Below, one piece after another: positions 23,206-41,264 of a DNA stretch of 49,639 nt. The position numbers and the translations under genes are program-made. This DNA is from an uncultured Spirochaetaceae bacterium (GTDB lineage Bacteria > Spirochaetota > Spirochaetia > SZUA-6 > DRHE01): NCBI GenBank assembly GCA_964495755.1, contig CAZBXU010000003.1, positions 1-49,639 of the forward strand, in the 5' to 3' direction. The notes below the pieces were generated by a model. The model saw only the letters and a program-made list of their open reading frames with translations, made no database searches and was not told the origin of the DNA. How positions within the stretch are numbered: position 1 is the first letter of the stretch; each line of letters begins with the position of its first letter.

Positions 23206-23334
23206 CATCCGCCTCAGCCGACATGGGTGCTTCCGGCTTGCATCATGAACAGCGCACGGCCACCATTTCGGCGAGCTCATCCAAATAAAACCATTATTGG
23301 TATCCGGCGTGTAATAAAAAGAAATGTGACAAAA

Positions 23335-24837
23335 TTAAGAAAAGACAGGATTCGAAAAAAGGCGAACCGGTTTTCCACCTGTCTTTGAAGGGGCCAGGGT
23401 AAAGAATGTGCACTTATCGCTGGGAGGGACTTCTTCGGGGAAATGGGTCACAATAATAACAGGCCCATAGTGCATATCGAGCAGGGTCATGAACTTCCTC
23501 CAGAGGCATCTACGGCCCTCTGCATCGAGACCGGCAAAGGGTTCATCCAAGAGCATCACCTCGGGGAAGCGGGCAAAACAGCGGGCGAATCCCAACCGTT
23601 TTTTCATTCCCCCGGATAATTCGTCGGGCGTTCCGCTCTCCCAGCCGGAAAGGCCTGCCTCGCCGAGAAGGTAACGAGCGAATGCCAGGGAATCTGCTGA
23701 TGGAACCCTTGAGTAAATCAAAGGCAGGGCAACGTTCCAGGCGTTGGATCGCCAGGGTAGAAACCGGTCGTCCTGAAACACAAAGCCAAGTCTCTCAGGT
23801 CGCCTGATCGTTCCGGATATCGGTTTGAGCAGTCCTGCCGCTGTATACAGTAACGTGGTCTTTCCCAATCCGGAATCCCCTGAGATCACAACGATTTCAT
23901 CAGGCCTTACGGTCAGACTGATACGATCGAGAAGAAGCTCGGATTCCGGATAAGCGAAGCTTACATCCTGGAGAACGACCTCCTGTTTGCTAGATTCCTG
24001 TATAAACGCTCGTTTCAGCTGTTCAAGAGTCTCGGGACAAGGGATTATAGTACCCTTTCGTTCGACCCGTTTCCCGGGACGTGCTAGTGCCTGCTCTAAC
24101 CTTCCAAGAAGCCGGCTGGCAATTAAAATGAGAAAAATGAGAATCAAGCCCCAGGCAAAGACCTTCCGCATCTGCAAAGACTGGAAGGAAGCTTGAACCT
24201 GAAATCCAATTCCGTTGTTAGCGCCGAAGTACTCGGCGATGACCGATGCCTTGATTCCCAACACAATACCTAGTTTTACTGCGGCAGCAAGGAACGGTTT
24301 GAGATGGGGCAGAACGAGCTCCCGGAGTTTGGGGTATACCCCGGGAGCGAACACATCGAGCATCTGTTCAAGGTGATGGGGAACGGCTTTCACACCCTCG
24401 TTCACGTTCAACGCCACGATGGGAAAACAGATCAGGGCTATGACCAAAACAGGGGCAAGGTGCCCAATGCCCAGCACGAGGATCAATGGGATGATCCACA
24501 GCAGCGGAGGTATACCTTGCAGGATTAGAACCAAAGGGCGAAATAGAATCTCCACATTCTGATTGAGCCCGGACAGAATTCCCGCTGCTGAACCGCAGGC
24601 AAGGGCGAGGGAAAAACCCGCTGCAACCCTGAGGACCGTAATCAGGATCTGTTTCCAGACAAATCCTTGTGAAAGGAGCGACACCGTCTCTACGGCAGTA
24701 TGCCAAGGAGAAGGAATGATATATGATCCGGTTAGTAAACTCGCCGTGCTCCAGATTGTAAGTAGGAGTAAACTGCCAAGAACATAAAGGATAGTCCTTT
24801 TTCGCTTCTTCGAAACAACTTGATCCATCACGGGCAA
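23335..24837 (-). CDS. Fused ABC importer-type permease (TauC/SsuC-like) and ATPase
   Basis: The N-terminal ~260 aa is a BPD_transp_1-type membrane domain with an EAA-like loop (NVNEGVKAVPHHLEQMLDVFAPG). The C-terminal NBD has GDSGLGKTT, LSGGMKKR and MLLDEPFAGLD. Confidence 0.8.
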   Translation of the reverse strand: MPVMDQVVSKKRKRTILYVLGSLLLLTIWSTASLLTGSYIIPSPWHTAVETVSLLSQGFVWKQILITVLRVAAGFSLALACGSAAGILSGLNQNVEILFRPLVLILQGIPPLLWIIPLILVLGIGHLAPVLVIALICFPIVALNVNEGVKAVPHHLEQMLDVFAPGVYPKLRELVLPHLKPFLAAAVKLGIVLGIKASVIAEYFGANNGIGFQVQASFQSLQMRKVFAWGLILIFLILIASRLLGRLEQALARPGKRVERKGTIIPCPETLEQLKRAFIQESSKQEVVLQDVSFAYPESELLLDRISLTVRPDEIVVISGDSGLGKTTLLYTAAGLLKPISGTIRRPERLGFVFQDDRFLPWRSNAWNVALPLIYSRVPSADSLAFARYLLGEAGLSGWESGTPDELSGGMKKRLGFARCFARFPEVMLLDEPFAGLDAEGRRCLWRKFMTLLDMHYGPVIIVTHFPEEVPPSDKCTFFTLAPSKTGGKPVRLFSNPVFS

Positions 24838-25847
24838 AAGAAGAACTCCTCTTGAAGCTCACCCCGTTTCCCGGGCAGAAACCCTTTGACATCCTCATAG
24901 TAAGCCTTAACGCGGTGTCGATTTTCCTCCGGGGAAGGAACATGGAACAAGGTTTTGGCGATTGAATGGGCAATCACCTCTTCGCAAAAGCCCAGGGCCG
25001 TAGAAAATTTCTTGGCTGCTTTTTCAGGATCAGACACAACCTGCTGGGTAGCCGCACGCCACTGGACTATAAATTCCTTCAACATCTCGGCGTTCCTTTC
25101 TGCGTAGCTGCGGGTCGTGAACAGGCTTACCTGAGGAGACAGCGCTTCGCCTTGATTCGCGGCAGCCCAGGCCTGTTTGTAGTCGATGAAGCGTTGCAGA
25201 CCCCGATTGATGACCAGTTCCGAGGCCAGAGGCTCAGGAATCGGTGCGGCGTCGATCCGGCCTTTTAGAAGCAGCGCCACGGTTTGAGGTAAAGGAGAGT
25301 AGATAATAGTAAGGTCCCGATCCGGGTCGATATCCTGTTTATGCAGGAAAAAACGGGTCTGAAAATCCAGAGGGGAACCCGGGAACGGCAGAGCGATCCG
25401 CTTCCCCGCAAGATCAGCAATGCTTTCGATACGCGGACAGTCGATGGAGCCAATCAGATAGGAGATACCCCATACACCCGTGCTGATCATCAGGATGGGG
25501 CTGCCGGACAAGTAGTTCTCCCACCCCTGGCTGCTTCCGGTAAGAAGCAGATCTACCTCGCCGCGAAGCAACCGCGCCAAAGCCTGAGCATGGTTGAGGA
25601 AGATATCTGCCTGGATATCTACACCCGGAAGTGGATCCTCCTCGGCAAGGAGAAGTAGAGGCAGGCTCGAGTTGGAGGGAGGCACCAACAGGCGTACAAC
25701 AGGGGTAACCGGTTGCGCAGAGCAGGCTCCAATCCCGACAAGACCGAAGAATACAAGACCGAAGAATACAAGAGCAATAAGAAATCTCGCAGAACGGTAA
25801 TAGTGGTGATCTCTTTTGATCTGAAATAACGGGGTGACACAGATCAT
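24828..25847 (-). CDS. NMT1/TauA/SsuA-type ABC substrate-binding lipoprotein
   Basis: Signal peptide with lipobox GIGACS and an NMT1-like core (LAGKRIALPFPGSPLDF). It has an ATGA overlap with the upstream kinase gene. Confidence 0.75.
   Translation of the reverse strand: MICVTPLFQIKRDHHYYRSARFLIALVFFGLVFFGLVGIGACSAQPVTPVVRLLVPPSNSSLPLLLLAEEDPLPGVDIQADIFLNHAQALARLLRGEVDLLLTGSSQGWENYLSGSPILMISTGVWGISYLIGSIDCPRIESIADLAGKRIALPFPGSPLDFQTRFFLHKQDIDPDRDLTIIYSPLPQTVALLLKGRIDAAPIPEPLASELVINRGLQRFIDYKQAWAAANQGEALSPQVSLFTTRSYAERNAEMLKEFIVQWRAATQQVVSDPEKAAKKFSTALGFCEEVIAHSIAKTLFHVPSPEENRHRVKAYYEDVKGFLPGKRGELQEEFFFCP
25741..25770. repeat. Perfect 15-bp tandem duplication inside the binding-protein signal peptide
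   Basis: AGACCGAAGAATACA occurs twice back to back. On the minus strand it encodes the doubled LVFFG-LVFFG. Confidence 0.9.
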
Positions 25848-27319
25848 GACAGGGGGATTTCCACTTTAAAGATGCTGCCCTTGCCGGGAGCACTCTCCGC
25901 ATTTATTTGCCCCTGGTGCAGCTCGATCAGCCGCTTGACCAGACTCAGGCCCAGACCCGTCCCTGGTATATCAGCTGTGTGTTCGTTCTTGACACGGTAA
26001 AATTCGTCGAAGACTTTGTCCAACTCCGGCTGAGTCATTCCGATCCCCGTGTCCTGCACACTGACGGCAGCGTACAGGCCGTTTTGAGCCACCTGGACTG
26101 TCACCTTACCCTGCTCCGCGGTGTATTTGATCGCATTGTCGATTAAATTGGAGAAGACCAGGAGCAGGGCTTCCCTGTCAGCCAGGGCGGTTTTTTCTTT
26201 CTCGGGGAGAAGCTCATTCAGGGTAAGATCGATACCCTTGCCGGCGGCTCTCTCTCTCGCTGCTTCCACAGCCTCGCGAACGATTTCAACCATATCTACA
26301 CTGGTACGGTGCAGCTCAAAATTGCCGGTCTCAATGGCGGTGATGCTGAGAAGCTCCGATATGAGAATACGCAGCGTCCTCACCCGGAGGTGCGAACGTT
26401 CTATCATGTGTCTTTCCTCCTCCGGATCATGCCCTGCCAACCCGCTGAGCAGCAGGTTGAGCCACCCTTCAGTTGCCGCCAGCGGGCTTTTCAGCTCGTG
26501 GGCCACCATGGAGACGAACATCGATTTGGCGGTCTCCAACTTCTTCAGCTCGGTGATGTCCCGAAATACCGCCACCGCCCCTGAGGTCTCACCGCCCGGT
26601 TCAATCACCGGACTCACGTTTACCATATAGGTGTTTTTCCCGATTGCCAGCTCCCGGGAGACGATCCTGGGACCGGGGTCCCCCTCAAGGACTTCATCGA
26701 TCAGCTCATCTGTTTTCGGATACTCCAGCTCGGAGAGGGAGAAAGGCACGTTTTGCCTCGATGCCTTTGGGAAAATACGGGCGGCGGTGTTGTTACGCAG
26801 CACGACCAGCTTCTCCAGGTTGATGACCAGCAGACCATCGGTGATACATTTGAGGATCGTACTGCACTTCGATCGCTCCGAGGCGACTTCAAGCAGGCGC
26901 TTCTCCCTTTCCTCCCGCAGACGTTTGGCCTCGAGAGCCAGAGCCTGACGCTCCAGGCCGTTGCGGATGGCAAGCAGGAGCTCCTCCGGGGTGAAGGGCT
27001 TGGGGATATAGCTGTAGGCGCCCTGCTTGGTGCCCTCCACCGCCGTATCGATGGTGGCGTAGGCGGTGATGACGATCAGGAGAAGATCAGGATCCAGCGC
27101 CCTGAGCCTCTTGATCAACTCCAGGCCCCCGAGACGGGGCATCAGCAGGTCGACGAGGGCGAATGAATAGTGGGGGTCATTTTCGAAGATCTCGAGAGCC
27201 TCGATCCCATCACAGGCAGTGGTTACCTCGAATCCTTCTTCCGTAAGGATTTTACGGCAGCCTTCACGGATGCCGAACTCGTCATCCACAATCAGGGCAC
27301 GAATCCCATGGTCGTTCAT
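25844..27319 (-). CDS. Soluble hybrid sensor: receiver - PAS - HisKA - HATPase_c
   Basis: The REC domain has ALVDLLMP. A PAS-like segment follows, then the H-box MVAHELKSPLAATEG and the G-boxes DTGIGM and GTGLGLSLV. There are no TM helices. Confidence 0.85.
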   Translation of the reverse strand: MNDHGIRALIVDDEFGIREGCRKILTEEGFEVTTACDGIEALEIFENDPHYSFALVDLLMPRLGGLELIKRLRALDPDLLLIVITAYATIDTAVEGTKQGAYSYIPKPFTPEELLLAIRNGLERQALALEAKRLREEREKRLLEVASERSKCSTILKCITDGLLVINLEKLVVLRNNTAARIFPKASRQNVPFSLSELEYPKTDELIDEVLEGDPGPRIVSRELAIGKNTYMVNVSPVIEPGGETSGAVAVFRDITELKKLETAKSMFVSMVAHELKSPLAATEGWLNLLLSGLAGHDPEEERHMIERSHLRVRTLRILISELLSITAIETGNFELHRTSVDMVEIVREAVEAARERAAGKGIDLTLNELLPEKEKTALADREALLLVFSNLIDNAIKYTAEQGKVTVQVAQNGLYAAVSVQDTGIGMTQPELDKVFDEFYRVKNEHTADIPGTGLGLSLVKRLIELHQGQINAESAPGKGSIFKVEIPLS

Positions 27320-27714
27320 GCGAGGAGCTCCTCCACTTTGCTAATAAGCACCTCGGGGGAGACGGGCTTGTCGAAGAAGGCGTCGGCCCGCATCGCTTCC
27401 AGCTCCTCTTGGCTTCGCGGGTTGAAGTCGAATCCCCGCCTACTGGCCGCCGCTGTCACTATGATTACCGGTATGTCTGTGAACCTGGGGTCGGATTTGA
27501 TTTTTTTGGCCAGAGAGAACCCGGAGTCGAGACTCTTCATCATCAGATCCGTCACCACCAGCTTCGGCGCCTCGGCCTCCATGCTCTGCCAGGCTTGATC
27601 GGCGTCGCTGAAGCAGCTGACCCGGTACCCTTTCGCTTTCAATATGCCGCTGTTCATCTCCAGGAAATCAATGTCGTCGTCAACCAGCACGATCGATGGT
27701 TTTGTTCCTGTCAT
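27316..27714 (-). CDS. Stand-alone response-regulator receiver protein
   Basis: 132 aa, REC domain only (IVLVDDD..., phospho-Asp context LVVTDLMM, IPVIIVTA). Confidence 0.85.
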   Translation of the reverse strand: MTGTKPSIVLVDDDIDFLEMNSGILKAKGYRVSCFSDADQAWQSMEAEAPKLVVTDLMMKSLDSGFSLAKKIKSDPRFTDIPVIIVTAAASRRGFDFNPRSQEELEAMRADAFFDKPVSPEVLISKVEELLA

Positions 27715-27718
27715 GCCT

Positions 27719-28114
27719 CTACCCTCGCAAGATCTTGTTGATCACATCGAGCAACAGCAGCGGCTCTACCGGTTTCTCGATCAGGGCATCAACGGGTAAC
27801 CAGGTCTCGTCAGGCTCGATATGGAAAGGAATTGTGTCGCTTACCGATGTGATCATGACCAGAGGAATGGTTTTTGTGTGCTCGCAATTTCGCAGTTCCC
27901 GGGAAAGATTGAATCCGATAACCTCACTTTCCATCATCATGTCCAGGATGATCAGGTCCGGTTTCCTGCTGTTGACCTGCTCCAGACATTCCCTGCCGCT
28001 GTAGGCAGTAAGTACCCTGTAGCCGTGATCGGCGAGCAGCTTGCGGTGCATCTCCATGAAATCCGCATCGTCGTCCACCAACAGCACTGTTTTTCTTACT
28101 CTTCGCGTGCTCAT
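27719..28114 (-). CDS. Stand-alone response-regulator receiver protein
   Basis: 131 aa, REC domain only (VLLVDDD..., LIILDMMM, IPLVMITS). It is a paralogue of the next gene and has an ATGA overlap with the upstream kinase. Confidence 0.85.
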   Translation of the reverse strand: MSTRRVRKTVLLVDDDADFMEMHRKLLADHGYRVLTAYSGRECLEQVNSRKPDLIILDMMMESEVIGFNLSRELRNCEHTKTIPLVMITSVSDTIPFHIEPDETWLPVDALIEKPVEPLLLLDVINKILRG

Positions 28115-30135
28115 GGCGGCTCTCCTATTCCAACCATCTGTTTTGTCTTGGCGTCATTCAGCGGCAGCCGGATGGTGAAGGCAGTCCCTTTTCCGACGTC
28201 GCTGTCAACCGAGATCTCTCCTGAGTGCATTTTTACCACCCCATACACGATGGACAGCCCCATTCCCGTTCCCTTGCCGAGCTGCTTGGTGGTGAAGAAG
28301 GGAGTGAAGATCTCAGAAAGGACCTCCTTCGGAATCCCTTGGCCCGTGTCACGGACCAGGATTTCTAAACAGTCATCATCTTCGGGTTTGCGAACCGAGA
28401 TCACGACCTTCCCTGCTTTTTCGATGGCGTCGATCCCGTTTTGGATCAGGTTTACCAGCATCTGCCGGATCTGGTCAGCGTCGATTTTTACCTCGGGAAG
28501 GTCAGGCTGGATTTCGCTTTCTATAGTAACTTGCGAATCCTGGGCCTTCAGCCGCGTATTGGCGATGACCTCTCCTATCAGCGCAGCCAGGTTCGTTTGT
28601 TCCCTTGCCACGCGGGACTGGCGGGCAAAGTCCAGAAGGCCCCGCATGATGTTGCGGCAGCGCGTCGCCTCGCTCAGGATCATCTGCACGTCCTCCGACC
28701 CGGCATCCTCTTTCTTGCGGTGTTTCAGGAGCATGTGGGAGTACAGAAGGATCGTGCTCAGCGGATTGTTGATTTCATGGGCCACTCCGGCGGAGATCTG
28801 GCCCATGGAGGCCAGACGCTCGGTCTGAATCAGACGGCTCTGCGCCGAAGCCAGCTCCCGGTGGGACTCCTGCAGCTCCTTCAGAGTCGTTTCCAGCTCC
28901 TCCACCAGGTAGGGCAGGCACATCTCGATCTCAGCCAGGCCCTGGCACACGGCGATGGCCTTCTCGCGACAGGTGGGATATCCGCAGGAGCCGCAGTTCA
29001 GCTGATCCTCCGGCCCGAACTTGCGCATGGCCTTGAGGGCCTCGGCGATTTCCTCTTCGGAAGGCTGCGGCAGCAGCACGGTCTGGCGGGTAAACTGTCG
29101 GGAAAGGTCCAGATCGTCGAACTCCGCCAGAGCTTCTGTCAGCTCCCGCCGGACGGTGAAACGATTCTGCTCGATGATGTAATCTGTAAGCAGTTCTTTA
29201 CGGGTAAAGACACTCATTTCCACGGGTATCTTCGGCCCGTTGATGCAGCCCTCGCAGAACAGCAGGTCGAACAGCTTGGCCTTGCTCTTGCCCGCCTCCA
29301 GCTCTTTGAGCACCTCCAGCACCCTGTCCTTGCCTTCGGTGATCAGAACGTCGTTTTCCAGAATATCCGCCTGCAGCCCTGTGGTGCGCAGCAGTCCTCC
29401 GGAGATGGGGAAGGTCCTGCCCAGGTAGCAGGGAGGCCCGTCGAAGTCGCTGATCTTTTCCTGTTCCGGATCGATCCCGGCCTCAGAAACCATGGCGAGC
29501 ATTTCCTCGAAGGTGAGAACCGCATCGACGGTTCCCTGCACGAAGGGGTCCTTGATCTCGTTCTTCTTGGCGATGCAGGGTCCGATGAAGACGATCCGAA
29601 CCCCGGAGCCGTAGCGTTGGCGGATGGCTCTGCCCACGGCAATCATGGGACTGACGATGGGAGCCAGGGCATCGTGAAGGGACGGCATGTATTTCTCTAT
29701 GTAGGACACGATGGCCGGACAGGGTGTGGAGATCACGTATTTACCATTCTGGAGTGCGTCTTTGAATACTTTGGAGTATTCCCGGCTGATCAACTCGGCT
29801 CCGAAGGAGACTTCCCAGATATCCCCGAATCCCAGCTTGCGCAAGCTGGCGACGATCCGTCCGGGATGGGTGGGGTGGAAGGCAACGGGAAAGGAAGGGG
29901 CCAAACAGGCAAAGGTCCTCTCCTTGCCCTCCAGGAGGTTCCGAACCAGCATGGTGCTGTCCTCGATCCGTTTGGCCTTCTGGGCGCAGACCTTCACGCA
30001 GTTTCCGCAGCAGATGCACTGCTCCTCGATGACGGTGGCCTGTCCTCCGATGACCTTGATCGCCTTGGCCGGGCATTCCCGAACGCAGGAGTAGCAGCGT
30101 TTGCACTTCTCCGGAATCGTCTCAACGATGCCCAT
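28111..30135 (-). CDS. Sensory [FeFe]-hydrogenase-like protein fused to a histidine kinase (HydS-HK, group C-like)
   Basis: It has two 4Fe-4S motifs (CKRCYSCVRECP, CICCGNCVKVCA). The H-cluster-like motifs are degenerate: ISTPCPAIV, IGPCIAKKNE and LFCEGCINGP. CGSCGYPTC-x16-C follows, then the H-box GVAHEINNPL and HATPase_c (DTGQGIP, GTGMGLSIV). Confidence 0.8.
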   Translation of the reverse strand: MGIVETIPEKCKRCYSCVRECPAKAIKVIGGQATVIEEQCICCGNCVKVCAQKAKRIEDSTMLVRNLLEGKERTFACLAPSFPVAFHPTHPGRIVASLRKLGFGDIWEVSFGAELISREYSKVFKDALQNGKYVISTPCPAIVSYIEKYMPSLHDALAPIVSPMIAVGRAIRQRYGSGVRIVFIGPCIAKKNEIKDPFVQGTVDAVLTFEEMLAMVSEAGIDPEQEKISDFDGPPCYLGRTFPISGGLLRTTGLQADILENDVLITEGKDRVLEVLKELEAGKSKAKLFDLLFCEGCINGPKIPVEMSVFTRKELLTDYIIEQNRFTVRRELTEALAEFDDLDLSRQFTRQTVLLPQPSEEEIAEALKAMRKFGPEDQLNCGSCGYPTCREKAIAVCQGLAEIEMCLPYLVEELETTLKELQESHRELASAQSRLIQTERLASMGQISAGVAHEINNPLSTILLYSHMLLKHRKKEDAGSEDVQMILSEATRCRNIMRGLLDFARQSRVAREQTNLAALIGEVIANTRLKAQDSQVTIESEIQPDLPEVKIDADQIRQMLVNLIQNGIDAIEKAGKVVISVRKPEDDDCLEILVRDTGQGIPKEVLSEIFTPFFTTKQLGKGTGMGLSIVYGVVKMHSGEISVDSDVGKGTAFTIRLPLNDAKTKQMVGIGEPP

Positions 30136-30149
30136 CGTTATCCCCTATC

Positions 30150-31928: not shown

Positions 31929-31932
31929 ACCG

Positions 31933-34900
31933 TTACTCTCCTGATTCTGGTTCTCTATAGTCGCAGCGCAAACAGCGCTTTGCTTCCGCTAAAGCCACGT
32001 TTCGGGTCCAGGTGGCCTCTACCTCGGTGAAGCTCCCCTTGCGTTTGCTAACGGGTATGAGCTTCGGGGCCGCCCGAGGTGTCTCGACGGGATCCGCCTC
32101 GGGATCGAAGAAGGTGTCTACCTCGTGGTCCTTCCGCCAGAAGGCCCGATTTTTGCCGCCGAGGAACAGATCGATGCCTACGGCTGCCTTCTCACCGGCT
32201 GCCACCGCCTCGATCACCGAGGAGGGACCGCTGACGGCATCCCCACCGGCAAAGATCCAGGATTCCGAGGTTTGTCCATTGTTCGAGTCCACTGCGATGT
32301 AGCCCATCTCGTTGAGCTTCAAGCGTACCCCGTCGAAGATTTTCGCCGGGTCGAGGGTCTGACCGATTGCCGGGATCAGCAGGTCCGCAGGCAGCGTGTA
32401 CTCGGAGTCCTTCTTAGCCACCGGCCGGCGCCTTCCGCTCCTGTCGAACTCACCGAGCTCCATGCTCTGCAGACGCACCTGCTCAAGCTTACCTCTGTTG
32501 GCGGTCAGCTCGACAGGGGCAGCGAGGAACTCGAAGCGAACTCCCTCTTTCTCAGCCTCCTCGACCTCTTCTTCATAGGCGGGCATCTCGGCCCGGGTGC
32601 GGCGGTAGACCACGGTCACAGTCTCGGCGCCGAGGCGCAGGGCGGTGCGGGCGGCGTCCACCGCGGCGTTTCCGCCTCCCACCACTACCACGTTGCCGCC
32701 GACCTTCTGCTTGCCGTTGAGGTTGTACGCCCTTAAGAATTCGATGGCTTCGGTGCATCCCGGCATGGTTTCTCCCTCCAGGCGCAGGCCCATGCCGTCG
32801 GGGGCGCCTACGGCGAGGAACAGCGCATCATATCCCTGATCCTTAAGCTTCTCGATAGTGAAGTCCCTGCCCAGACGTTTTCCGGTTTTGATCTTCACCC
32901 CGAGCTTACGAATCATGTCGACGTCCTTACCGAGAAGCTCCCGGGGCAGCCTGTAGGCGGGAATGGCTTGAGCCAGCATCCCCCCCGGCATATCTTGAGC
33001 CTCGAAGACTTCGGGCCGGTAACCCAGTCGGGCCAGGAAATAGGCGCAGGCCAGACCCGCCGGTCCCGCTCCAACAATAGCTATCTTGCGCCCGGCTGCC
33101 TGCTCGTCGCTAAGAAAATCGGGCAGCTGAAGCTCCTTCTCCTGGTCGGAGAGGAAGCGCTTCAGAGCTCGGATAGACAGAGCCTCGTCCAGCGTGGAGC
33201 GGCGACACTTGCTTTCACAGGGGTGAAAGCAGACCCTGGAGCACACAGATACGAAGGGGTTGCGCTCCCGATGCAGCTTCAGCGCCTCTTCGTAGCGCTT
33301 CTCGGCGATCAGGCTGACGTACCCGGGTACATCGACCCCGGCGGGGCAGGCGTTCTGACATGGCGCCCGGACCAGCTCCGAACAGATCCCGGCCACGCAT
33401 TTCTTGTCCCGGATATGGGCCTCGAACTCCCCGCGGAAGTGCCGGATAGCCGAGAGCACAGGATTAGGAGCGGTCTGGCCCAGTCCACAGAGCGCCGTAT
33501 CCTTGATCACCTTACCCAGGCGAATCAGCCGTTCTATATCTCCCTCCTCGCCTTTACCGGCGCAGATGCGCTCGAGGATCTCCAGCATCCGCTTGGTGCC
33601 GATCCGGCAGGGGGCGCACTTGCCGCAGGACTCGTCCTGAACGAACTCGAGGAAGAAGCGGGCCATGTCCACCATGCAGGAGTCGTCGTCCATGATGATC
33701 AACCCGCCGGAGCCCATGATGGCTCCAAGCTCGGTCACACTCTCATAGTCCACGGGCACGTTCAGATGCTCCTTGGGGATGCAGCCGCCGGAGGGCCCGC
33801 CGATCTGGGCGGCTTTGAACTTCTTGCCGTCGGGGATCCCGCCGCCGATGTCGTAAACGATCTCCCCCAGGGGTATGCCAATGGGGACCTCCACCAGGCC
33901 GGTGTTCTTCACCGCCCCGGCTAGGGCAAACACCTTGGTGCCCTTGCTCATCTCGGTTCCGAAAGAGGCGTACCAGTCCGCTCCCTTCAAAAGAATGACC
34001 GGGATGTTGGCATAGGTCTCCACATTGTTGAGCAGGCTTGGCATGTCCCAAAGCCCCTTCTGGGCGGGGAAGGGAGGCCGGGGCCGCGGCTCTCCACGGT
34101 TGCCCTCGATGGAGGTCATCAGGGCCGTTTCTTCCCCGCATACGAAGGCACCGCTTCCCATGCGGATTTCCAGGTCGAAATCGAAGCCGGTGCCCATGAT
34201 GTTCTGGCCCAAGAGCCCGTATTCCCTTGCCTGTTGGATCGCCTTTCCCAGACGGTCGACCGCCAGGGGGTACTCGGCCCGGACGTACACGTAGCCTTGG
34301 GAGGCACCGATGGCGTAACCGGCGATGGCCATGGCCTCGATCACGCCGTGCGGGTCTCCCTCCAGCACGCTGCGGTCCATGAACGCTCCCGGGTCACCCT
34401 CATCGGCGTTGCAGAGCACGTACTTCACTTCTCCGGGAGATCTGCGGCAGAATTCCCACTTCAGGCCAGTGGGAAAGCCTGCACCGCCGCGGCCGCGCAG
34501 GCCCGAACGCTTGATCTCGTCGATCACCGCTTCCGGCTTCATCTCGGTAAGAGCCTTGGCCAGGGCCCGGTATCCGTCCCGGGCGATATACTCCTCGATG
34601 CGCAGGGGGTCGATCAGGCCGCAGTTGCGCAGCACGATCTTCACCTGTTTGCGGAAGAAGGACAACTCCTGCAGCGGCGGGGTCACCTGTCCAGCGACTC
34701 CCGCTTCGGCGGCCAGCTTGGAAACCACCCTGCCTTTGAGAAGGTGCTCCTCCACGATTTCCTCGGCATTTTCAGGCTTGAGGTTCTGGTAGAGGACGCC
34801 GTCCGGGTAGATTACAGCCACCGGGCCGGCAGCGCAGGGGCCTAGACAGCCTGTCTCGATAACCCGGATCTCTCCGTCCAGGCCGAAACGGTCTATCGCC

Positions 34901-34989
34901 TCCTTGAAGGCGGCGGACAGCTCAAGGGCTCCCGAGGCCACACAGCTGGCACCGGTACATATCAAAACGTTGCTTCGTGAACGATTCAT
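31933..34989 (-). CDS. hydB: HydB (NuoF-like, FMN/NADH) fused to a GltD/NfnB-like FAD/NAD(P)H oxidoreductase module
   Basis: 1018 aa. It opens with a thioredoxin-like 2Fe-2S domain (CTGASC...GCLGPC), then the NuoF core (GGAGFPTGLKW, ESCGKCAPCR). GltD-type Fe-S (CQNACPAGVDVPGY...CSRVCFHPCESKC) and two Rossmann motifs (IAIVGAGPAGLACAY, VVVVGGGNAAVDAART) follow. Confidence 0.8.
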   Translation of the reverse strand: MNRSRSNVLICTGASCVASGALELSAAFKEAIDRFGLDGEIRVIETGCLGPCAAGPVAVIYPDGVLYQNLKPENAEEIVEEHLLKGRVVSKLAAEAGVAGQVTPPLQELSFFRKQVKIVLRNCGLIDPLRIEEYIARDGYRALAKALTEMKPEAVIDEIKRSGLRGRGGAGFPTGLKWEFCRRSPGEVKYVLCNADEGDPGAFMDRSVLEGDPHGVIEAMAIAGYAIGASQGYVYVRAEYPLAVDRLGKAIQQAREYGLLGQNIMGTGFDFDLEIRMGSGAFVCGEETALMTSIEGNRGEPRPRPPFPAQKGLWDMPSLLNNVETYANIPVILLKGADWYASFGTEMSKGTKVFALAGAVKNTGLVEVPIGIPLGEIVYDIGGGIPDGKKFKAAQIGGPSGGCIPKEHLNVPVDYESVTELGAIMGSGGLIIMDDDSCMVDMARFFLEFVQDESCGKCAPCRIGTKRMLEILERICAGKGEEGDIERLIRLGKVIKDTALCGLGQTAPNPVLSAIRHFRGEFEAHIRDKKCVAGICSELVRAPCQNACPAGVDVPGYVSLIAEKRYEEALKLHRERNPFVSVCSRVCFHPCESKCRRSTLDEALSIRALKRFLSDQEKELQLPDFLSDEQAAGRKIAIVGAGPAGLACAYFLARLGYRPEVFEAQDMPGGMLAQAIPAYRLPRELLGKDVDMIRKLGVKIKTGKRLGRDFTIEKLKDQGYDALFLAVGAPDGMGLRLEGETMPGCTEAIEFLRAYNLNGKQKVGGNVVVVGGGNAAVDAARTALRLGAETVTVVYRRTRAEMPAYEEEVEEAEKEGVRFEFLAAPVELTANRGKLEQVRLQSMELGEFDRSGRRRPVAKKDSEYTLPADLLIPAIGQTLDPAKIFDGVRLKLNEMGYIAVDSNNGQTSESWIFAGGDAVSGPSSVIEAVAAGEKAAVGIDLFLGGKNRAFWRKDHEVDTFFDPEADPVETPRAAPKLIPVSKRKGSFTEVEATWTRNVALAEAKRCLRCDYREPESGE

Positions 34990-34993
34990 TGTC

Positions 34994-35365
34994 TTATTCC
35001 TCCAAGATGTATTCCTGAACAGGCTTGCCCTTCAGGACGTGGCTGGCGACGATCTCCCGTGCCTTTTCCCGGTTCAGGCGGACGTACAGGTAGTCCAATC
35101 CGCTCTTGTCGCTGAAAGTGAGCATGGGCTCCTGGTCGCACAGCCCTAAGCAGCCGGACTGGTGCAGGGTGACGTTCTCTACTCCCGCACCGGCCAGCTG
35201 CTCGCTGAGCTCGGCCATGATGTCCCGGGCCCCCGCTGCGATACCGCAGGTGCCCATGTGTACGGTGATGCGGATCTCCTTGGGACCGCTGCGCACATCC
35301 ACCTCGCCCCGGGCTTGGTCCCGGAGTTTTTTCAGGTCCTCCGGATTCTTGATCTTGACGCTCAT
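34994..35365 (-). CDS. Thioredoxin-like [2Fe-2S] ferredoxin
   Basis: 123 aa with HMGTCGIAAG...SGCLGLCDQEP, typical of the small ferredoxin found in HydABC clusters. It has an ATGA overlap with hydC. Confidence 0.8.
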   Translation of the reverse strand: MSVKIKNPEDLKKLRDQARGEVDVRSGPKEIRITVHMGTCGIAAGARDIMAELSEQLAGAGVENVTLHQSGCLGLCDQEPMLTFSDKSGLDYLYVRLNREKAREIVASHVLKGKPVQEYILEE

Positions 35366-35922
35366 ACTGTAGCCTCCTTGACAACGCTTTCACGGTTACG
35401 ATACTCGTCGAGGATGGCGCGGATTCGTTGAGGTTTGACCCGCTGGTGTACCTCCTCGTCGATCATGATCGTGGGGGCAAGGCCGCAAGCCCCGAAGCAG
35501 CGGGCCACCTCGAGGCTGAATTGCCGGTCCTCTGTGGTACTTCCCACGTCGATCTTCAGCTCCTGCTTGAGGTTGTCCAGTACCCGCTTGCCCCCGCGGA
35601 CGTAGCAGGCGGTGCCCAGGCAGACTCGGATCAAGTGCTTGCCCCGAGGAACGGTGGAGAAGAAGGAATAGAAACCTACCACTCCGGCCACCTCGCTGTA
35701 CGATTTGCCCAAGCGCAGGGCTATACGCTTTAGAGCTCCTTCGGGTAGATAGCCGAAGATCCCCTGAGCGATCTGCAGCACGGGAATCAGTGCCCCGGGC
35801 TTTCCCTGATACTCCTCCAGGACTTCGTCCAGCCTGGAGAATAGCTCCTCATCGGAGACGGTCTCCCCGCAGCAGGTATCTATCTTTGCGGGATTAGCTG
35901 AAATTTCAGCTTGGTTATTCAT
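35362..35922 (-). CDS. hydC: HydC (NuoE-like [2Fe-2S] subunit)
   Basis: 186 aa with IRVCLGTACYVRG...VARCFGACGLAP, the NuoE/HoxE Cys pattern. Confidence 0.85.
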   Translation of the reverse strand: MNNQAEISANPAKIDTCCGETVSDEELFSRLDEVLEEYQGKPGALIPVLQIAQGIFGYLPEGALKRIALRLGKSYSEVAGVVGFYSFFSTVPRGKHLIRVCLGTACYVRGGKRVLDNLKQELKIDVGSTTEDRQFSLEVARCFGACGLAPTIMIDEEVHQRVKPQRIRAILDEYRNRESVVKEATV

Positions 35923-35925
35923 GCC

Positions 35926-36495
35926 TCACTCCTTAATCTCAAGGGCTTCAAGACCCTCTTTTATTTGCTGATTAACTTTTCTGGCCACGGCGAGCCGATT
36001 GATCGCGGTCGGAGTGGATCCTCTCTTTCCCTGGAGAACCAGCTCCCGTGAGACCTCTTTGCTCAGAATCATTTGTTCCCGCTCTCCTACCTTCAGGCGG
36101 CAGCGCAGCTCGATGTCCGGATTGGAGGCCACCACCGAAGAGAGGGTGGAAGCCAAATTGCCGAGGGGATTGCGATCCACGTGGGCCAGGCGAAGCGTTG
36201 CCCGCACGGCCAGTCCACCGAGAGGTGAGCGCTCGAGGGCGAGCTCGCCCCCGGCCTGCTCGATCCGGAAACGAAACAAGCTCAAACCCAGGCCTGTCTT
36301 CTTCCCTTTCTTGGTCGTGTAGAAGGGATCCATGGCCCGCGCCACAGGCACGCTCAAACCCGGACCATTGTCCTCCACGGCAATGCGCATCAGATCCCAT
36401 GCGGGTTCCACGGCGATCTCCACAGCCACCACTGTGGCTCCGGCGGCGATTGCGTTTTCGATTAGATCGAGGATGTGCAGGGAAAGCTCACGCAA
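35926..36495 (-). CDS. Stand-alone GHKL (histidine-kinase-like) ATPase domain protein
   Basis: The motifs are LHILDLIENAIAAGA (N-box-like), VEDNGPGL and KKTGLGLSL. I chose the TTG at 36495, with AGGAGG 7 nt upstream, over the tracked ATG at 36561, which overlaps the PHP gene. Confidence 0.7.
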   Translation of the reverse strand: MRELSLHILDLIENAIAAGATVVAVEIAVEPAWDLMRIAVEDNGPGLSVPVARAMDPFYTTKKGKKTGLGLSLFRFRIEQAGGELALERSPLGGLAVRATLRLAHVDRNPLGNLASTLSSVVASNPDIELRCRLKVGEREQMILSKEVSRELVLQGKRGSTPTAINRLAVARKVNQQIKEGLEALEIKE

Positions 36496-37258
36496 TCTGA
36501 CACCTCCTTGAGTCGATTCCCTGAATGGCCAGGACCAGCTCGTCAAAAGATGGCTCGGCAACCACGAAGACCGTACAGGAGGAGGCGATGTCCTCCAAGA
36601 AGTGACTGTCCGAGGAGCTGATCAGGGGAAGACCGTGCTGCCGGAACTCCTCCATCCGATTCCGGGCTACTCCGGCCGAAGAGATCTCCGCGGCGGAGAA
36701 CCGGGGCGTTTCAGGGAAGAACCCTAGCTGTCCCAGCACGCTGAAGGCCTGGCGGTCCACATGAGCAGCCACGGCAATTCCACCGTGCTCCCGGATTAAG
36801 CCCACCGCTTCGCTGAGGGAGTACCCGCTTGCCGCAGTGAGAAGCCGGTGCTCCGTACCGGTTTGCCTGTCCTCAGCGTCAAGGATCCACTGCCGGTAGC
36901 CGGGATCCTTCCCGACCGGACTCAAGCGCTGCTCTGCCGATTTTCGCTGCGGCAGACTATCCAGTACGCAATCACTGACAGCGAGAGCATTATTAAGTGC
37001 CGGGAACAGACCCAGGACGTGGACCTCTTCCCGGGTTGTCATTTCGATCCCCGGAATAACCTTAAGACCGCTGCCGGTTTCTCTCTCCGCCGCTTCAGCC
37101 ACGGCAGATACATTGGCCGCACTGTTGTGGTCACAGATGGCGATCATTTTCAAATCTCTTTCCCAGGCGGTGCTCACGATTTTTCGTGGCAGCATCTGCC
37201 TCGAGGCACAGGGAGACAACGCCGTATGGATATGAAGGTCCGCCAGGAGTGCAGTCAT
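36488..37258 (-). CDS. PHP (polymerase/histidinol phosphatase) domain phosphoesterase
   Basis: The N-terminus is ADLHIHTALSPCA, followed by AICDHNS and AAHVDR metal-ligand motifs. It has an ATGA overlap with the upstream gene. Confidence 0.8.
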   Translation of the reverse strand: MTALLADLHIHTALSPCASRQMLPRKIVSTAWERDLKMIAICDHNSAANVSAVAEAAERETGSGLKVIPGIEMTTREEVHVLGLFPALNNALAVSDCVLDSLPQRKSAEQRLSPVGKDPGYRQWILDAEDRQTGTEHRLLTAASGYSLSEAVGLIREHGGIAVAAHVDRQAFSVLGQLGFFPETPRFSAAEISSAGVARNRMEEFRQHGLPLISSSDSHFLEDIASSCTVFVVAEPSFDELVLAIQGIDSRRCQIA

Positions 37259-37608
37259 TCATACCGCCCCCTGATCCCCAAGGCGTAAAGCTTGCCCGCC
37301 GTGTCGAAGGTGCTCTCTTTTGTGGTGAAGAGAGGTATTTTTTCCTCAACCGCTTTGTCTCGTACAGCCTCTTCGGGAACCATACCGGAGGTAAAAATCA
37401 CCGCCGCCTGCATGGCATGCACGGCCACGGCGATAACGTTGAGGTGAACCTGGATCGTCAGCAGCACCCCCCCAGCCGGGGCGTTGGCCAGAACATCGCT
37501 TAGAAGATCCGAGGCGTGAGCCCGGGTAATCTCGGCATGTCCCTGTTCTGCCAGATCAGCGGTAGTAGTTTGCAAACCGAGCCTGGCGGCGACTTGTTCT
37601 AAATTCAT
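37255..37608 (-). CDS. DRTGG domain protein
   Basis: 117 aa from the ATG at 37608 (an ATGA overlap). The pattern (ASDLLSDVL...LLTIQVHLNVIAVA...AVIFTSG) matches small DRTGG proteins. Confidence 0.65.
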   Translation of the reverse strand: MNLEQVAARLGLQTTTADLAEQGHAEITRAHASDLLSDVLANAPAGGVLLTIQVHLNVIAVAVHAMQAAVIFTSGMVPEEAVRDKAVEEKIPLFTTKESTFDTAGKLYALGIRGRYE

Positions 37609-39194
37609 GATTCTCCTCTCCCTCGTAAGATGACGCATTCCAAACCGGGATTGCGGTCCATCACGATATCCTCAGCCAGGGACGAGCAGGTCGGGGCTCC
37701 GCAGGCACCGCAGTCCCGCCCTGGCAGGCCGGCGGTCAGTTCGTCTATGCGTGCCAGCTTTTCGATCGCTTTGCCCATGTCCTGGTCAAGTCGCATCCCC
37801 GTGCGGGCTAGATAGGGGCTTTTTGTCGGCGCGGCGCTCACCTGCCTCCGACGCCCAAGGAGTGATGCTGCCCAGCGGTTCTTGGCCATGAAGGGATTCT
37901 CCTTGAACAGAGGTGTGCCGTAGCAGCCGTATACGCAGCAGCTGAGCTCGAGAATCCGGAAATCCCCCGAGAGTCCTTTCTCCGTTTTCTCCAGGATGTC
38001 TATTACGTTTTCCATCCCCCACGCCTCGAGGACAGACGGGTCGTGATTGCCGGTTCGAGGTGGACGGGGAATCGGTTTCTGCTCACTCCTGTCGGTTTCG
38101 GTCTGAGCAGTTATGAGGGGCAGAATCTGAGCTGAGAGCCCTGCAGGGCTGGTGATCTGCAGGCGACCGGACAGGTCGGCCCGAGTGAGAAGGGCGTACT
38201 GACTGGGGCAGGCGGCGACAAAGGTCACCGGCTGCAGGCCGTAGGCTTCGACAGCCGATTCGATCGGCGTCATGAAGGGGGCGATCTGTCCGATCAGGGA
38301 GGGAAACTGACTCTCGATAAGGTTTATGACGGCTGGGCAGATGGGAGAGATTACCGGGTAGCTATCCTGCTCGGCGGCGTACCGTCGTACCGTCCGGCGC
38401 AGCTCTTCTTCCCACTCTTCGCTGAAACGGATGTCTTTGAACCCCAGGCTTCGCAGTACCGCCATTACCAGTCGGGGCGGTATCTTCAATCCAAATTGGG
38501 TGAGAAAAGCCCGGGGGATGACGAGGGTGTCTTGGCCCGCTTCAGCGACTGATTGCTGCGGCATTTTTTTTTGGTCCGGTTCCCGAATCCCGAAAACCCC
38601 CCGCCTGCAGGCTGCAATACAGGTGGTGCATCCTATACACAGGGCAGCCAAGATGCGCGGTTTCTGATTCCACACCCTGACAGCTCGAGTCGGGCAGGCT
38701 TTCAGGCAGTCGAAACAGCCGTTGCAGAGTTCCGAGCTAATGGACAGACAGTGATCGGTGGGCTCTCCCACCGTCTGCGTTTTGAGATAGATCGTCGAGC
38801 GCACCCGGGTTCCCTTCTCTGCCCGGGAGTCGACCTCGAACACGTCACTTGCTTTCTTGATGTTGGGAAGGCCCATACCCGCGCCGAAACCGAGCTGTCT
38901 CGCCTCCGCGGAGGCCGTGGAGTATCCTGGTTTCAAGGCCAGTGCGAGATCCGCAATGCCCGGACCTTCGTCGATCACTTCCATGTTGAACCGCTTGTTG
39001 TCAAACCTGACCCAGAGATTTCCTTTACAGGCGTGGATGACCACGTTCATCTCCGCTTCATAGGCGGCAATCATGATCCGCCGCATGATCTGCCCCTCGA
39101 CTCCTATACGCTTCAGTTGTTCCTTCAGCATACGGGAGGCGGAGCCGGCGGCTGTGAAATTGCCACCCGCGATCGGGAAGGAGCTGGTGATCAT
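37605..39194 (-). CDS. Anti-sigma-type kinase (GHKL) domain + 2x[4Fe-4S] + H-cluster-like domain + Cx2Cx4Cx16C Fe-S domain protein
   Basis: From the ATG at 39194 (an ATGA overlap). The N-terminus is SpoIIAB/RsbW-like (IAAYEAEMNVVIH, VIDEGPGI, GFGAGMGLPN). Two 4Fe-4S motifs follow (CNGCFDCLKACP, CIGCTTCIAAC). The hydrogenase-like motifs are ISPICPAVIN, VAACPSQ and LSCCVYGCYG. The C-terminus has CGACGAPTC-x16-C. Confidence 0.75.
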   Translation of the reverse strand: MITSSFPIAGGNFTAAGSASRMLKEQLKRIGVEGQIMRRIMIAAYEAEMNVVIHACKGNLWVRFDNKRFNMEVIDEGPGIADLALALKPGYSTASAEARQLGFGAGMGLPNIKKASDVFEVDSRAEKGTRVRSTIYLKTQTVGEPTDHCLSISSELCNGCFDCLKACPTRAVRVWNQKPRILAALCIGCTTCIAACRRGVFGIREPDQKKMPQQSVAEAGQDTLVIPRAFLTQFGLKIPPRLVMAVLRSLGFKDIRFSEEWEEELRRTVRRYAAEQDSYPVISPICPAVINLIESQFPSLIGQIAPFMTPIESAVEAYGLQPVTFVAACPSQYALLTRADLSGRLQITSPAGLSAQILPLITAQTETDRSEQKPIPRPPRTGNHDPSVLEAWGMENVIDILEKTEKGLSGDFRILELSCCVYGCYGTPLFKENPFMAKNRWAASLLGRRRQVSAAPTKSPYLARTGMRLDQDMGKAIEKLARIDELTAGLPGRDCGACGAPTCSSLAEDIVMDRNPGLECVILRGRGES

Positions 39195-39544
39195 GGCCGG
39201 TGGGGGCCTTCTCCGTAGAGCCGTCGGTGCAGGCGGCCGCAGGTCTCGAACATATCGAACGGGCAGACCAGCACTGCGGTTGAACCCCTGGCCGCCGCCT
39301 CCAGCAGGCTCGGATCGGGATCGACACCGTCCACCAGGCAGAGGGCCGGGCAATCCATCAGCTCAGCTACGCAGGCGAGCTGGGTGTTGGCCAGGCTGGT
39401 CACGAGCAGTGTTTCAGGGCCTGCCTTTTCCAGCAGTGTGCTCATCTTGTCGCCGGCAAACACGTGAGCGATCTCGCCCATCTCCTTCCTGCCCGGCTGC
39501 AGCATTCGGGCATCGATTACCTTGACCAGTTCCTCGAGTTTCAT
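39191..39544 (-). CDS. DRTGG domain protein
   Basis: 117 aa from the ATG at 39544 (MKLEELVKVID...), preceded by GAAGGGAG. The tracked 20-codon N-terminal extension would cover the sigma54 promoter. Confidence 0.65.
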   Translation of the reverse strand: MKLEELVKVIDARMLQPGRKEMGEIAHVFAGDKMSTLLEKAGPETLLVTSLANTQLACVAELMDCPALCLVDGVDPDPSLLEAAARGSTAVLVCPFDMFETCGRLHRRLYGEGPHRP

Positions 39545-39571
39545 CGGATCAGCGCTCCCTTCTATCCGGAT

Positions 39572-39587
39572 AGCAAGTATTGTGCCA
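39572..39587 (-). promoter_or_regulatory. Sigma54 (-24/-12) promoter
   Basis: The minus strand reads TGGCAC (39587-39582), AATAC, TTGC (39576-39573), then T. In context this is TTGGCACAATACTTGCT, against the consensus YTGGCACGRNNNTTGCW. It lies 28 nt upstream of the ATG at 39544, directly downstream of an NtrC-type activator gene. Confidence 0.75.
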
Positions 39588-41260: not shown

Positions 41261-41264
41261 GGTT

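Follow-up and report, generated by a model that had tools for sequence, protein, structure and literature searches.

Contig CAZBXU010000003.1 of an uncultured Spirochaetaceae bacterium (assembly GCA_964495755.1) contains 15 consecutive minus-strand genes that bring together a HydABC-type [FeFe] hydrogenase, two hydrogenase-like sensors, a phosphorelay and an ABC importer. This arrangement raises the question whether these genes form one unit under the control of a sigma54 promoter, and what such a unit would do. We analyzed positions 1 to 49,639 of the forward strand, and refer to this 49,639 nt stretch as the window. The results obtained indicate that genes 1 to 13 are conserved as a coherent unit together with an upstream kinase/activator pair, a palindrome and a sigma54 promoter. 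The cluster is most likely a transcriptionally and post-translationally regulated H2 homeostat. The features of the region are listed here in the direction of transcription.

41265 to 42368, minus strand: HK0, a membrane-anchored histidine kinase (HK; Pfam HisKA and HATPase_c).
39860 to 41260, minus strand: NtrC-type sigma54 enhancer-binding protein, the activator (Pfam REC, Sigma54_activat AAA+ domain with GSFTGA loop, and Fis-type HTH_8).
39811 to 39844, no strand: imperfect palindrome of 34 nt with core GATCTCCCATGGGAG at 39822-39836, an inverted repeat just after the activator stop codon.
39572 to 39587, minus strand: sigma54 -24/-12 promoter TGGCACAATACTTGCT, an exact consensus, ending 27 nt before the ATG of gene 1.
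39191 to 39544, minus strand: gene 1, small DRTGG protein (Pfam DRTGG, 27.7 bits); the start is most likely ATG 39544 and not 39604, with ribosome-binding site AGGGAG.
37605 to 39194, minus strand: gene 2, RsbW/SpoIIAB-like Ser-kinase ATPase followed by two [4Fe-4S] sites, a degenerate H-domain and a Cx2Cx4Cx16C motif (Pfam).
37255 to 37608, minus strand: gene 3, second small DRTGG protein (Pfam; alignment).
36488 to 37258, minus strand: gene 4, PHP-family metal-dependent phosphoesterase (Pfam PHP and PHP_C).
35926 to 36495, minus strand: gene 5, stand-alone GHKL ATPase (Pfam HATPase_c, no DHp domain); the start is most likely TTG 36495, with ribosome-binding site AGGAGG and an 8 nt overlap with gene 4.
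35362 to 35922, minus strand: gene 6, HydC, NuoE-like [2Fe-2S] subunit (Pfam 2Fe-2S_thioredx, 164.7 bits; NCBIfam HoxE/NuoE-like).
34994 to 35365, minus strand: gene 7, small [2Fe-2S] ferredoxin, HydD/BfuD-like (Pfam; BfuD concept from PMC11406978).
31933 to 34989, minus strand: gene 8, HydB (NuoF-like, FMN/NADH) fused to a GltD/NfnB-like module, 1018 aa (Pfam, NCBIfam).
30150 to 31928, minus strand: gene 9, HydA, catalytic [FeFe] subunit, M3-type (Pfam Fe_hyd_lg_C, 322 bits).
28111 to 30135, minus strand: gene 10, HydS-HK (Pfam Fer4, full-length Fe_hyd_lg_C, FeS PF04060, HisKA and HATPase_c).
27719 to 28114, minus strand: gene 11, single-domain receiver (REC) with acceptor Asp and Lys present (Pfam).
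27316 to 27714, minus strand: gene 12, single-domain REC (Pfam; alignment).
25844 to 27319, minus strand: gene 13, soluble hybrid kinase with REC, PAS-like, HisKA and HATPase parts (Pfam).
24828 to 25847, minus strand: gene 14, lipoprotein, NMT1/SsuA (NitT/TauT)-type binding protein (Pfam; signal peptide and lipobox in the sequence).
23335 to 24828, minus strand: gene 15, fused ABC permease-ATPase (Pfam BPD_transp_1 and ABC_tran).
23206 to 23334, no strand: 3' boundary, a T-rich convergent intergenic region of 129 nt (plus-strand open reading frames (ORFs) by Pfam and sequence).

An uninterrupted run of 15 minus-strand genes with seven ATGA start/stop overlaps and no gap wider than 14 nt had been described in the sequence-only reading, and this layout was borne out by the ORF list and a script check. 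The genes form a contiguous series from 39544 down to 23335, and the ATGA overlaps were found at all predicted coordinates (39191-39194, 37605-37608, 37255-37258, 35362-35365, 28111-28114, 27316-27319 and 25844-25847). The widest gap lies at the HydA/HydS-HK junction; the other 13 of the 14 junctions measure 4 nt or less, and the 15 genes are translationally coupled. Searches of all 15 proteins with Pfam profiles upheld the domain assignments one by one. For gene 13, which had been read as REC-PAS-HK, the REC, HisKA and HATPase parts stood, while the PAS match stayed below the Pfam cut-off (21.4 vs 22.6 bits). Within the cluster neither sigma70-like promoters (6 observed vs 4.8 expected) nor terminator-like hairpins (19 observed vs 16.8 expected) were enriched, and an Rfam scan of the window returned no RNA family. 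The downstream genes, cbiM-PDGLE-cbiQ-cbiO, are on the plus strand and the unit therefore ends at 23335. From this layout we infer that the cluster would be transcribed as one mRNA.

The control region was compared with that of other loci (L001 and following), whose neighborhoods were annotated by phmmer with the window proteins. Exact matches to TGGCACN5TTGCW occur twice in the window, against 0.04 expected, and one of them is the element upstream of gene 1. A -24/-12 element was kept in the Spirochaetaceae loci L004, L006 and L007 at equal spacing to gene 1 although the flanks have diverged, and such elements were present in all five of L087-L090 and L095. The spacing to gene 1 is likewise kept in the distant contigs L083, L084 and L087-L095. 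The promoter is exact in L084 (TGGCACGCCGATTGCT), has one mismatch in L083, and is preserved in contigs in which gene 2 shares no more than 41-49% identity with that of the window. The proposal of a sigma54 promoter at this position was thus confirmed, both by its exact consensus and by its conservation in relatives and distant contigs. The second exact match, TGGCACCTTCCTTGCT (22025-22040, minus strand), was first read as the promoter of downstream efflux genes and is probably due to chance; it sits antisense within plus-strand cbiQ, with ~1.5 kb between it and the next gene on the minus strand.

The palindrome is located ~235 nt upstream of the promoter in the window. When the spacers between activator and gene 1 of the window, L081, L006 and L007 were aligned, the identity was 59% overall and two conserved islands appeared, the sigma54 element and GATCTCCCATGGGAG. 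Among 84 loci the 12-mer CTCNCATGGGAG was found only at the palindrome site (L004/L081, L006, L007, L083 and L084). In L083 and L084 the palindrome lies ~200 nt upstream of the promoter, and extended palindromes are present in L087-L090 and L095, for example TGTGCATAAATCTCCCATGGGCGATTTGTGCAC in L089 and TGGGCAGATCTCCCGCGGGGGATCTGTGCCCA in L095. We regard the palindrome as a candidate binding site of the activator (upstream activating sequence).

The regulator genes next to this region had been proposed to form a dedicated HK/NtrC pair, and Pfam identified both proteins accordingly. The likely start of the activator (ATG 41260) is located 4 nt past the HK0 stop codon. Its AAA+ domain scored 206 bits against PF00158, and its best NCBIfam matches are AtoC/NtrC, below the family cut-offs. 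A hydrophobicity scan of HK0 gave ~3 transmembrane helices within the first 95 aa and no periplasmic domain, and its kinase core is closest to AtoS/ZraS, again with scores below the family cut-offs. The membrane domain of HK0 (42080-42368; motif YTHFMYIPIALACMWWGRRG) is kept in L081 and L084 and is matched by no Pfam or NCBIfam model. Orthologues of HK0 (83% identity in L081, 62% in L084) always adjoin those of the activator (85% and 71%, respectively); the two are adjacent in L081, L084, L087-L090 and L095, and in the complete chromosome CP070696.1 a kinase (366 aa) and an activator (464 aa) directly precede gene 1. The values for L084 compare with only ~46% identity for gene 2. Regulator pair, candidate operator (the palindrome) and promoter therefore read as co-inherited.

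The gene order itself is conserved across lineages. Closest to the window, in a search with the HK-fused sensor, were loci of uncultured Spirochaetaceae metagenome-assembled genomes (MAGs; 75-94% identity). L004 and L007 have the full order of genes 1-15, and L006 has genes 1-13 without the importer. Genes 1-13 occur in the same order in the Actinomycetes-labelled MAG L019, in L082, in the long ENA contigs L083/L085 and L084/L086, where the clusters stop after gene 13, and in L088-L090. When metagenomes were scanned with aligned gene 2 homologues as query, >600 stretches (JGI) matched. In a close clade (L087-L100) HK0 and the activator are found together with genes 1-5, HydC, the ferredoxin, a ~1020-aa HydB, HydA, HydS-HK and the receivers; a distant clade from gut, bioreactor and fermentation samples has a HydB of ~597 aa, a split gene 2 and no HydS-HK. 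The 13-gene order, HK0/activator, palindrome and promoter are co-conserved where the proteins fall to 41-63% identity. The view of one coherent unit, with its gene order kept in relatives, is therefore supported for genes 1-13 and their control region. It did not hold for the ABC importer, which had been counted as part of the unit: genes 14-15 are present in L001, L002, L004 and L007 and missing in L006, L085 and L086, and the importer is a lineage-specific add-on outside the conserved unit.

These comparisons also bear on another explanation, namely that the run is a mosaic of genes 1-5, hydCDBA, the HydS-HK relay and the importer, which would be transcribed separately and be only loosely related in function. 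Such a mosaic would agree with ~60 loci from Bacteroidota and other phyla in which HydC-HydB-HydA is followed by HydS-HK-REC-REC/HK and HydB lacks the GltD part, with a D1-G2-D3-PHP set that stands beside hydCBA in the distant clade or is divergently transcribed from it there and in many distant loci, with the patchy presence of the importer, and with the frequent horizontal transfer described for clusters of this kind (PMC11406978). The narrow junctions and ATGA overlaps, the lack of enrichment of internal promoter- and terminator-like sites and the joint conservation of 13 genes and their control elements at 41-63% protein identity speak against it, and we consider a mosaic unlikely.

The enzyme encoded within this unit is a HydABC(D)-type hydrogenase (genes 6-9; group A3, NCBI 'A6'), its activity type being predicted from sequence. 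HydA scored 890.7 bits (cut-off 765) against NCBIfam NF040763, 'NADH-dependent [FeFe] hydrogenase, group A6', its best PDB match is A. woodii HydA1 (7q4v, E 4e-190), and it carries all three H-cluster motifs (P1 FTSCSPGW, P2 VMPCTAKK and P3 EIMTCPGGCIGGGGQP). The possibility that TSCSPGW (31000-31030) is a novel motif was rejected: A. woodii HydA1 shares it, and Ser at the second-Cys position of TSCCP of CpI is common according to a 2024 survey (PMC11406978).

HydB sets this enzyme apart from the well-known members. Its N-terminal part contains Complex1_51K, NADH_4Fe-4S and SLBB domains. The C-terminal ferredoxin-type [4Fe-4S] pair (B3/B4) is absent, and instead there is a GltD-like part with Fer4_20/DPD_II (two [4Fe-4S]) and Pyr_redox_2 (FAD, NAD(P)H site), the domain content of the 'sub-type I BfuB' of PMC11406978. 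The same fusion was found in L004, L006, L007, L019, L082, L084 and L087-L100. The B3/B4 pair is considered necessary for bifurcation to ferredoxin; since the GltD-like module replaces it, ferredoxin coupling and bifurcation are not to be assumed here. The A. woodii HydABCD and Thermotoga/Thermoanaerobacter HydABC enzymes (7q4v, 8a6t, 7p5h) resemble the one encoded in the window in the HydA match, in TSCSPGW and in having HydC and a small ferredoxin, whereas their HydB has two ferredoxin-type clusters where the GltD/NfnB-like module with its FAD/NAD(P)H site is found here. Common to the window, Sporomusa-type Nfn (StnABC) and NfnAB is the combination of NuoE/NuoF-like subunits with a GltD/NfnB-like NADPH/FAD module. 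In Stn, however, GltD is fused to a NuoG/HydA-like subunit and there is no H-cluster, while here it is part of HydB and HydA is intact.

Directly after hydA follows gene 10, HydS-HK. Its Fe_hyd_lg_C match covers positions 3-245 of 245 (E 5.7e-49), with motifs STPCPAI, GPCIAKK and LLFCEGC, and its C-terminal Cx2Cx4Cx16C [4Fe-4S] domain scored 38.7 bits against PF04060, the Cys being invariant. Among 76 HydS-HK homologues there is no variation at the four H-cluster Cys, the phospho-His or the ATP-binding boxes, and 72 of them have the Lys by which the 2Fe subcluster is held. A short helical linker of ~45 residues connects the last Cys of the C-terminal cluster to the H-box; no PAS output domain was found in gene 10, which has HisKA and HATPase_c instead, with a kinase core resembling AtoS/ZraS (score below the family cut-off). 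Thousands of relatives share this architecture. Alignment with HydA placed Pro, Gly and Leu at the equivalents of C299, M353 and M497. The first of these, the proton-relay position, is Pro in the Spirochaetaceae clade and Asp in 59 of the 76 homologues (window 29716-29724; L001-L080). To our knowledge, Asp is the only C299 substitution reported to retain activity in CpI.

Non-canonical residues at these three positions are the sensory signature described for TmHydS (PMC10055695). With TmHydS and TamHydS gene 10 has in common this signature, an N-terminal pair of [4Fe-4S] clusters, an H-domain with all ligands and the C-terminal Cx2Cx4Cx16C motif. It differs in its output, which is a fused HisKA/HATPase here, a PAS domain in TmHydS, whose architecture is M2f, and no domain at all in TamHydS, and in the C299 position, Ala in TmHydS and Pro here. 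The papers found include no characterized HK-fused HydS member, and reviews as well as a 2026 study still term the sensory role of group C putative. Based on the conserved ligands and the sensor-type residues, we infer that HydS-HK would sense H2.

HydS-HK might instead be an Fe-S redox sensor of the ferredoxin/NAD(P)H state or of O2 that has merely retained a hydrogenase fold. The Pro at the proton-relay position and the still putative role of group C would fit, as would the finding that H2 does not reduce the C-terminal [4Fe-4S] cluster of TamHydS (PMC13104023). Moreover, in agreement with the sequence-only reading, no hydE/F/G-like radical-SAM or GTPase gene was found among the 24 flanking ORFs that were put through Pfam (of 36 with at least 150 aa outside 23335-42368). 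On the other hand, the ligands listed above have been kept almost without exception, while the paralogous gene 2 has lost the Lys, and TmHydS binds a functional H-cluster in spite of comparable substitutions (PMC10055695). We therefore attach little probability to a sensor that does not respond to H2.

HydS-HK is followed by two single-domain receivers and the hybrid kinase of gene 13, whose kinase core is PnpS/PhoR/WalK-like (below the family cut-offs) and which comes after HydS-HK in nearly all loci examined. The acceptor Asp and the conserved Lys are present in the receivers of genes 11, 12 and 13. That HydS-HK is a structural or catalytic 'T subunit' whose kinase modulates the enzyme directly, with no phosphorelay to gene expression, is very improbable: BfuT, a HydS-HK-type protein, does count as a subunit of BfuABC sub-types IV and V in PMC11406978, HydS-HK always follows hydA directly and Pfam found no DNA-binding response regulator inside the operon, but the phospho-His and ATP-binding boxes are invariant, two or three receiver domains with an intact acceptor Asp always follow, and in other loci a DNA-binding regulator is close by. 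These output regulators vary, being of the NtrC type in L008 (a Clostridia MAG) and of the NarL type in L024 and L075, with NarL-type regulators in the vicinity in some Bacteroidota. The trio of HydS-HK, REC and REC-HK thus looks like a portable sensor relay with a lineage-specific output.

This design recalls the 'histidine kinase-linked' [NiFe] group 2b system of Cupriavidus/Ralstonia (HoxBC/HoxJ/HoxA). HoxA is an NtrC-type activator that acts with sigma54. As presented in HydDB (see also PMC5665086), that system follows the same logic, a slow hydrogenase sensor and a kinase controlling hydrogenase genes. The differences are that the metal sites are unrelated, [NiFe] there and [FeFe] here, that sensor and kinase are separate there and a single polypeptide here, and that additional receivers and a second kinase are interposed here, the link from HydS-HK to the activator being only putative.

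Two loci show other surroundings of HydS-HK. In L008 (10001-18160) HydS-HK is accompanied by a metzincin-like protein of 175 aa and, two genes away, the NtrC-type activator, then by a near-consensus sigma54 site, TGGCACGCATCTTGAT, and after this site by HydC, HydB and a short HydA-like protein of 427 aa. L047 (60-13100; a Bacteroidales MAG) shows the additional genes of Bacteroidota clusters. One is a second, divergent HydS of 620 aa, upstream of which a PP2C/SpoIIE phosphatase and a small 2Fe-2S protein are encoded, and a Rex redox repressor and an FAD synthetase come after REC-HK; phosphatase-linked and kinase-fused sensors therefore flank a single hydCBA in this locus.

The other sensor-like protein, gene 2, belongs to the group of genes 1-5. 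Pfam identified in it HATPase_c_2 (PF13581, 40.4 bits, with highly conserved N, G1 and G2 boxes), two 4Fe4S domains, a partial Fe_hyd_lg_C and FeS PF04060. Its motifs ISPICPAV, AACPSQY and SCCVYGC keep the four Cys, and the P2 Lys is lost, as seen in the alignment and in the conservation over 120 homologues; they depart from the canonical P1-P3 motifs for the 2Fe subcluster. The AlphaFold2 model (pLDDT 85.2, pTM 0.82) was used in a Foldseek search of the PDB, in which all top matches were [FeFe] hydrogenases (lowest E 7e-12). The most fitting description of gene 2 is that of a [4Fe-4S]-only pseudo-hydrogenase that has presumably lost H2 chemistry. Both H-domain proteins, genes 2 and 10, nevertheless have the hydrogenase fold: the fold that the sequence-only reading had assigned to them was found in gene 10 over its full length with the ligands, and in gene 2 by the structural model and its matches. 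In the distant clade (L101-L166) two genes take the place of gene 2, one for a ~140-aa RsbW-like ATPase and one for a ~450-aa Fe-S/H-domain protein; either the gene of the window is a fusion or the split genes result from fission.

Genes 1 and 3 are paralogous, with an invariant D-x-x-S motif in the alignment, and gene 4 keeps the metal-binding HxH and DxH motifs. By analogy with RsbW/SpoIIAB partner switching, we propose that genes 1-5 may form a phospho-switch. The likeness consists in the HATPase_c_2 domain of gene 2 with its three boxes, and in the position of gene 2 between two small paralogous proteins, followed by a phosphoesterase. In partner switching the substrate is a STAS protein and the phosphatase a PP2C, whereas DRTGG and PHP proteins take those places here, and the kinase of gene 2 is fused to Fe-S and hydrogenase-like domains. 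The statement that DRTGG, PHP and HATPase genes occur beside hydABC elsewhere was supported, as the D1-G2-D3-PHP(-GHKL) module adjoins hydABC in many metagenomic loci. A literature search on DRTGG or PHP genes with hydrogenases returned nothing, and one on TM1420-TM1423 nothing useful.

Together, these results suggest the following mechanism for a regulated [FeFe] hydrogenase operon, which we consider rather probable as a whole. HK0 would phosphorylate the activator, which would then bind the palindrome and open the sigma54 promoter, so that the whole operon is switched on. HydC, the small ferredoxin, HydB-GltD and HydA would assemble as a HydABC(D)-type hydrogenase, and since an FMN/NADH site and an Nfn-like FAD/NAD(P)H site are combined in HydB, the enzyme would link H2 to the pyridine-nucleotide pools. 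HydS-HK is expected to bind a true H-cluster in a slow, sensor-type pocket and to report H2 through its kinase to both single-domain receivers and to the REC-HK hybrid, a relay that would be portable and also occurs alongside other HydABC types. Genes 1-5 would be an ancient companion module of HydABC: the RsbW-like kinase of gene 2 may read the redox state, rather than H2, of its [4Fe-4S]-only pseudo-hydrogenase domain and, with the two DRTGG proteins and the PHP phosphoesterase, tune the enzyme post-translationally. The ABC importer would be a later, lineage-specific addition. A more far-reaching version, in which genes 1-5 are an ancient phospho-switch on HydABC and form with the HydS-HK relay and the sigma54 activator an H2 homeostat of three tiers, serving an Nfn-like hydrogenase that is independent of ferredoxin and coupled to NADH/NADPH, is tentative. 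Of the claim of a self-contained module for H2 sensing and H2 metabolism, the coherent conserved unit and the hydrogenase fold of its two putative sensors can be kept, the importer being left outside.

Several observations weigh against this mechanism. L082 and L019 carry the same genes with no convincing sigma54 promoter recognizable upstream of gene 1, and sigma54 control would therefore be clade-specific. As an alternative to a binding site, the palindrome may represent a hairpin at which the activator transcript ends; the lack of a T-run behind it counts against a terminator. Internal promoters may exist inside the cluster. The RsbW-like kinase has neither a STAS nor a PP2C partner, its neighbors being the DRTGG and PHP proteins; that DRTGG proteins are kinase substrates and PHP a protein phosphatase are guesses. 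A receiver shared by HK0 and HydS-HK was considered and dropped, as the DHp helices of the two kinases differ. The unreduced C-terminal cluster of TamHydS speaks against a mechanism in which redox changes are simply relayed from H-cluster to kinase. The literature found contains no characterized HydB-GltD fusion enzyme. Finally, with no maturase gene among the flanking ORFs scanned, H-cluster maturation of HydA and HydS-HK is assumed.

Much of the inventory has been described before. HydDB lists A2, A3 and C1-C3 as putative classes. A survey of BfuABC/HydABC clusters in Hydrogenedentota (mSystems 2024; PMC11406978) defined the sub-type I BfuB, with DPD_II and an FAD/NAD(P) module replacing B3/B4 and with BfuD ferredoxin as an optional subunit, and noted sub-type I relatives in Spirochaetota. 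It reported bfuT sensors with PAS or histidine-kinase domains adjoining bfuA, with bfuT present twice in Bacteroidota. Beside group A3 genes it described group C1 proteins that have HATPase_C and lack P1-P3 motifs, and it suggested that the HK-fused forms are C3 and the HATPase-type forms C1. Sub-type I HydB with ferredoxin, an HK-bearing bfuT after bfuA and a C1-like kinase are thus all as in the window. In that survey, however, bfuT goes with sub-types IV and V, whereas here a sub-type I enzyme is combined with an HK-fused sensor and a C1-like kinase, and the DRTGG, PHP and GHKL genes, the REC-REC-REC/HK relay, the sigma54 promoter, the kinase/activator pair and the palindrome are not described in it. 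Nor did the literature found describe the DRTGG/PHP/GHKL genes, the relay, control by sigma54, activator and palindrome, or their combination with the sub-type I enzyme. The arrangement had been put forward as undescribed, and this is upheld for the combination and not for HydB-GltD, the HK-fused sensor next to hydA or the HATPase C1 proteins. What is new here is that a sub-type I HydABCD is joined by sensors of both types, by a relay of three receivers and by a defined sigma54 circuit, built of parts already catalogued.

Whether group C [FeFe] hydrogenases sense H2, and how the signal is passed on, is a point that the 2026 literature has left unresolved. The circuit offers a fully specified test system for it, in which a kinase-fused sensor and three candidate receivers come with a defined sigma54 promoter, a putative operator and an activator that is co-inherited; with this complete set of parts, H2-dependent autophosphorylation and phosphotransfer would be directly assayable. 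The HydB-GltD enzyme could link H2 to both pyridine-nucleotide pools, and the DRTGG/HATPase-FeS/PHP/GHKL companion genes, which match the >600 JGI stretches, are without functional literature in our searches. The organism is uncultured. As the parts are catalogued, the value of the locus is that of a test-bed and not of a new kind of system.

Outside the cluster, a divergent sugar ABC system is located farther upstream of HK0. On the other side, a CbiM-PDGLE-CbiQ-ABC ATPase (Ni/Co ECF-type) transporter operon (20734-23205, plus strand) converges on gene 15. A minus-strand ORF of 232 aa in this region (22582-23280) was rejected as a 16th gene on account of its lack of family matches, nonsense-like composition and lack of conservation, and the minus-strand ORF at 20677-21786 is spurious, the real genes there being on the plus strand; both are Arg/Pro/His-rich artefacts of high G+C.

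The binding protein of the importer, gene 14, scored 74 bits against NCBIfam SsuA_fam (cut-off 163.5), and a PDB search gave only weak NrtA-like matches and no informative relative. NitT/TauT-type ABC systems adjoin related hydrogenase clusters in three arrangements (23335-25847 in the window, 13360-16574 in L047 and 3093-5504 in L097): co-directional after gene 13 in Spirochaetaceae, convergent with an inner REC gene in Bacteroidales, and divergent upstream of gene 1 in L097/L098. The identity among their binding proteins is only 24-26%; orthology to genes 14-15, as well as a functional link to the hydrogenase clusters, is possible. In L086 (14844-15593) a gene for a TauE/SafE-type sulfite exporter lies just past the 13-gene cluster on the opposite strand; this is maybe a coincidence, and is mentioned because the binding protein of the window is SsuA/TauA-like.

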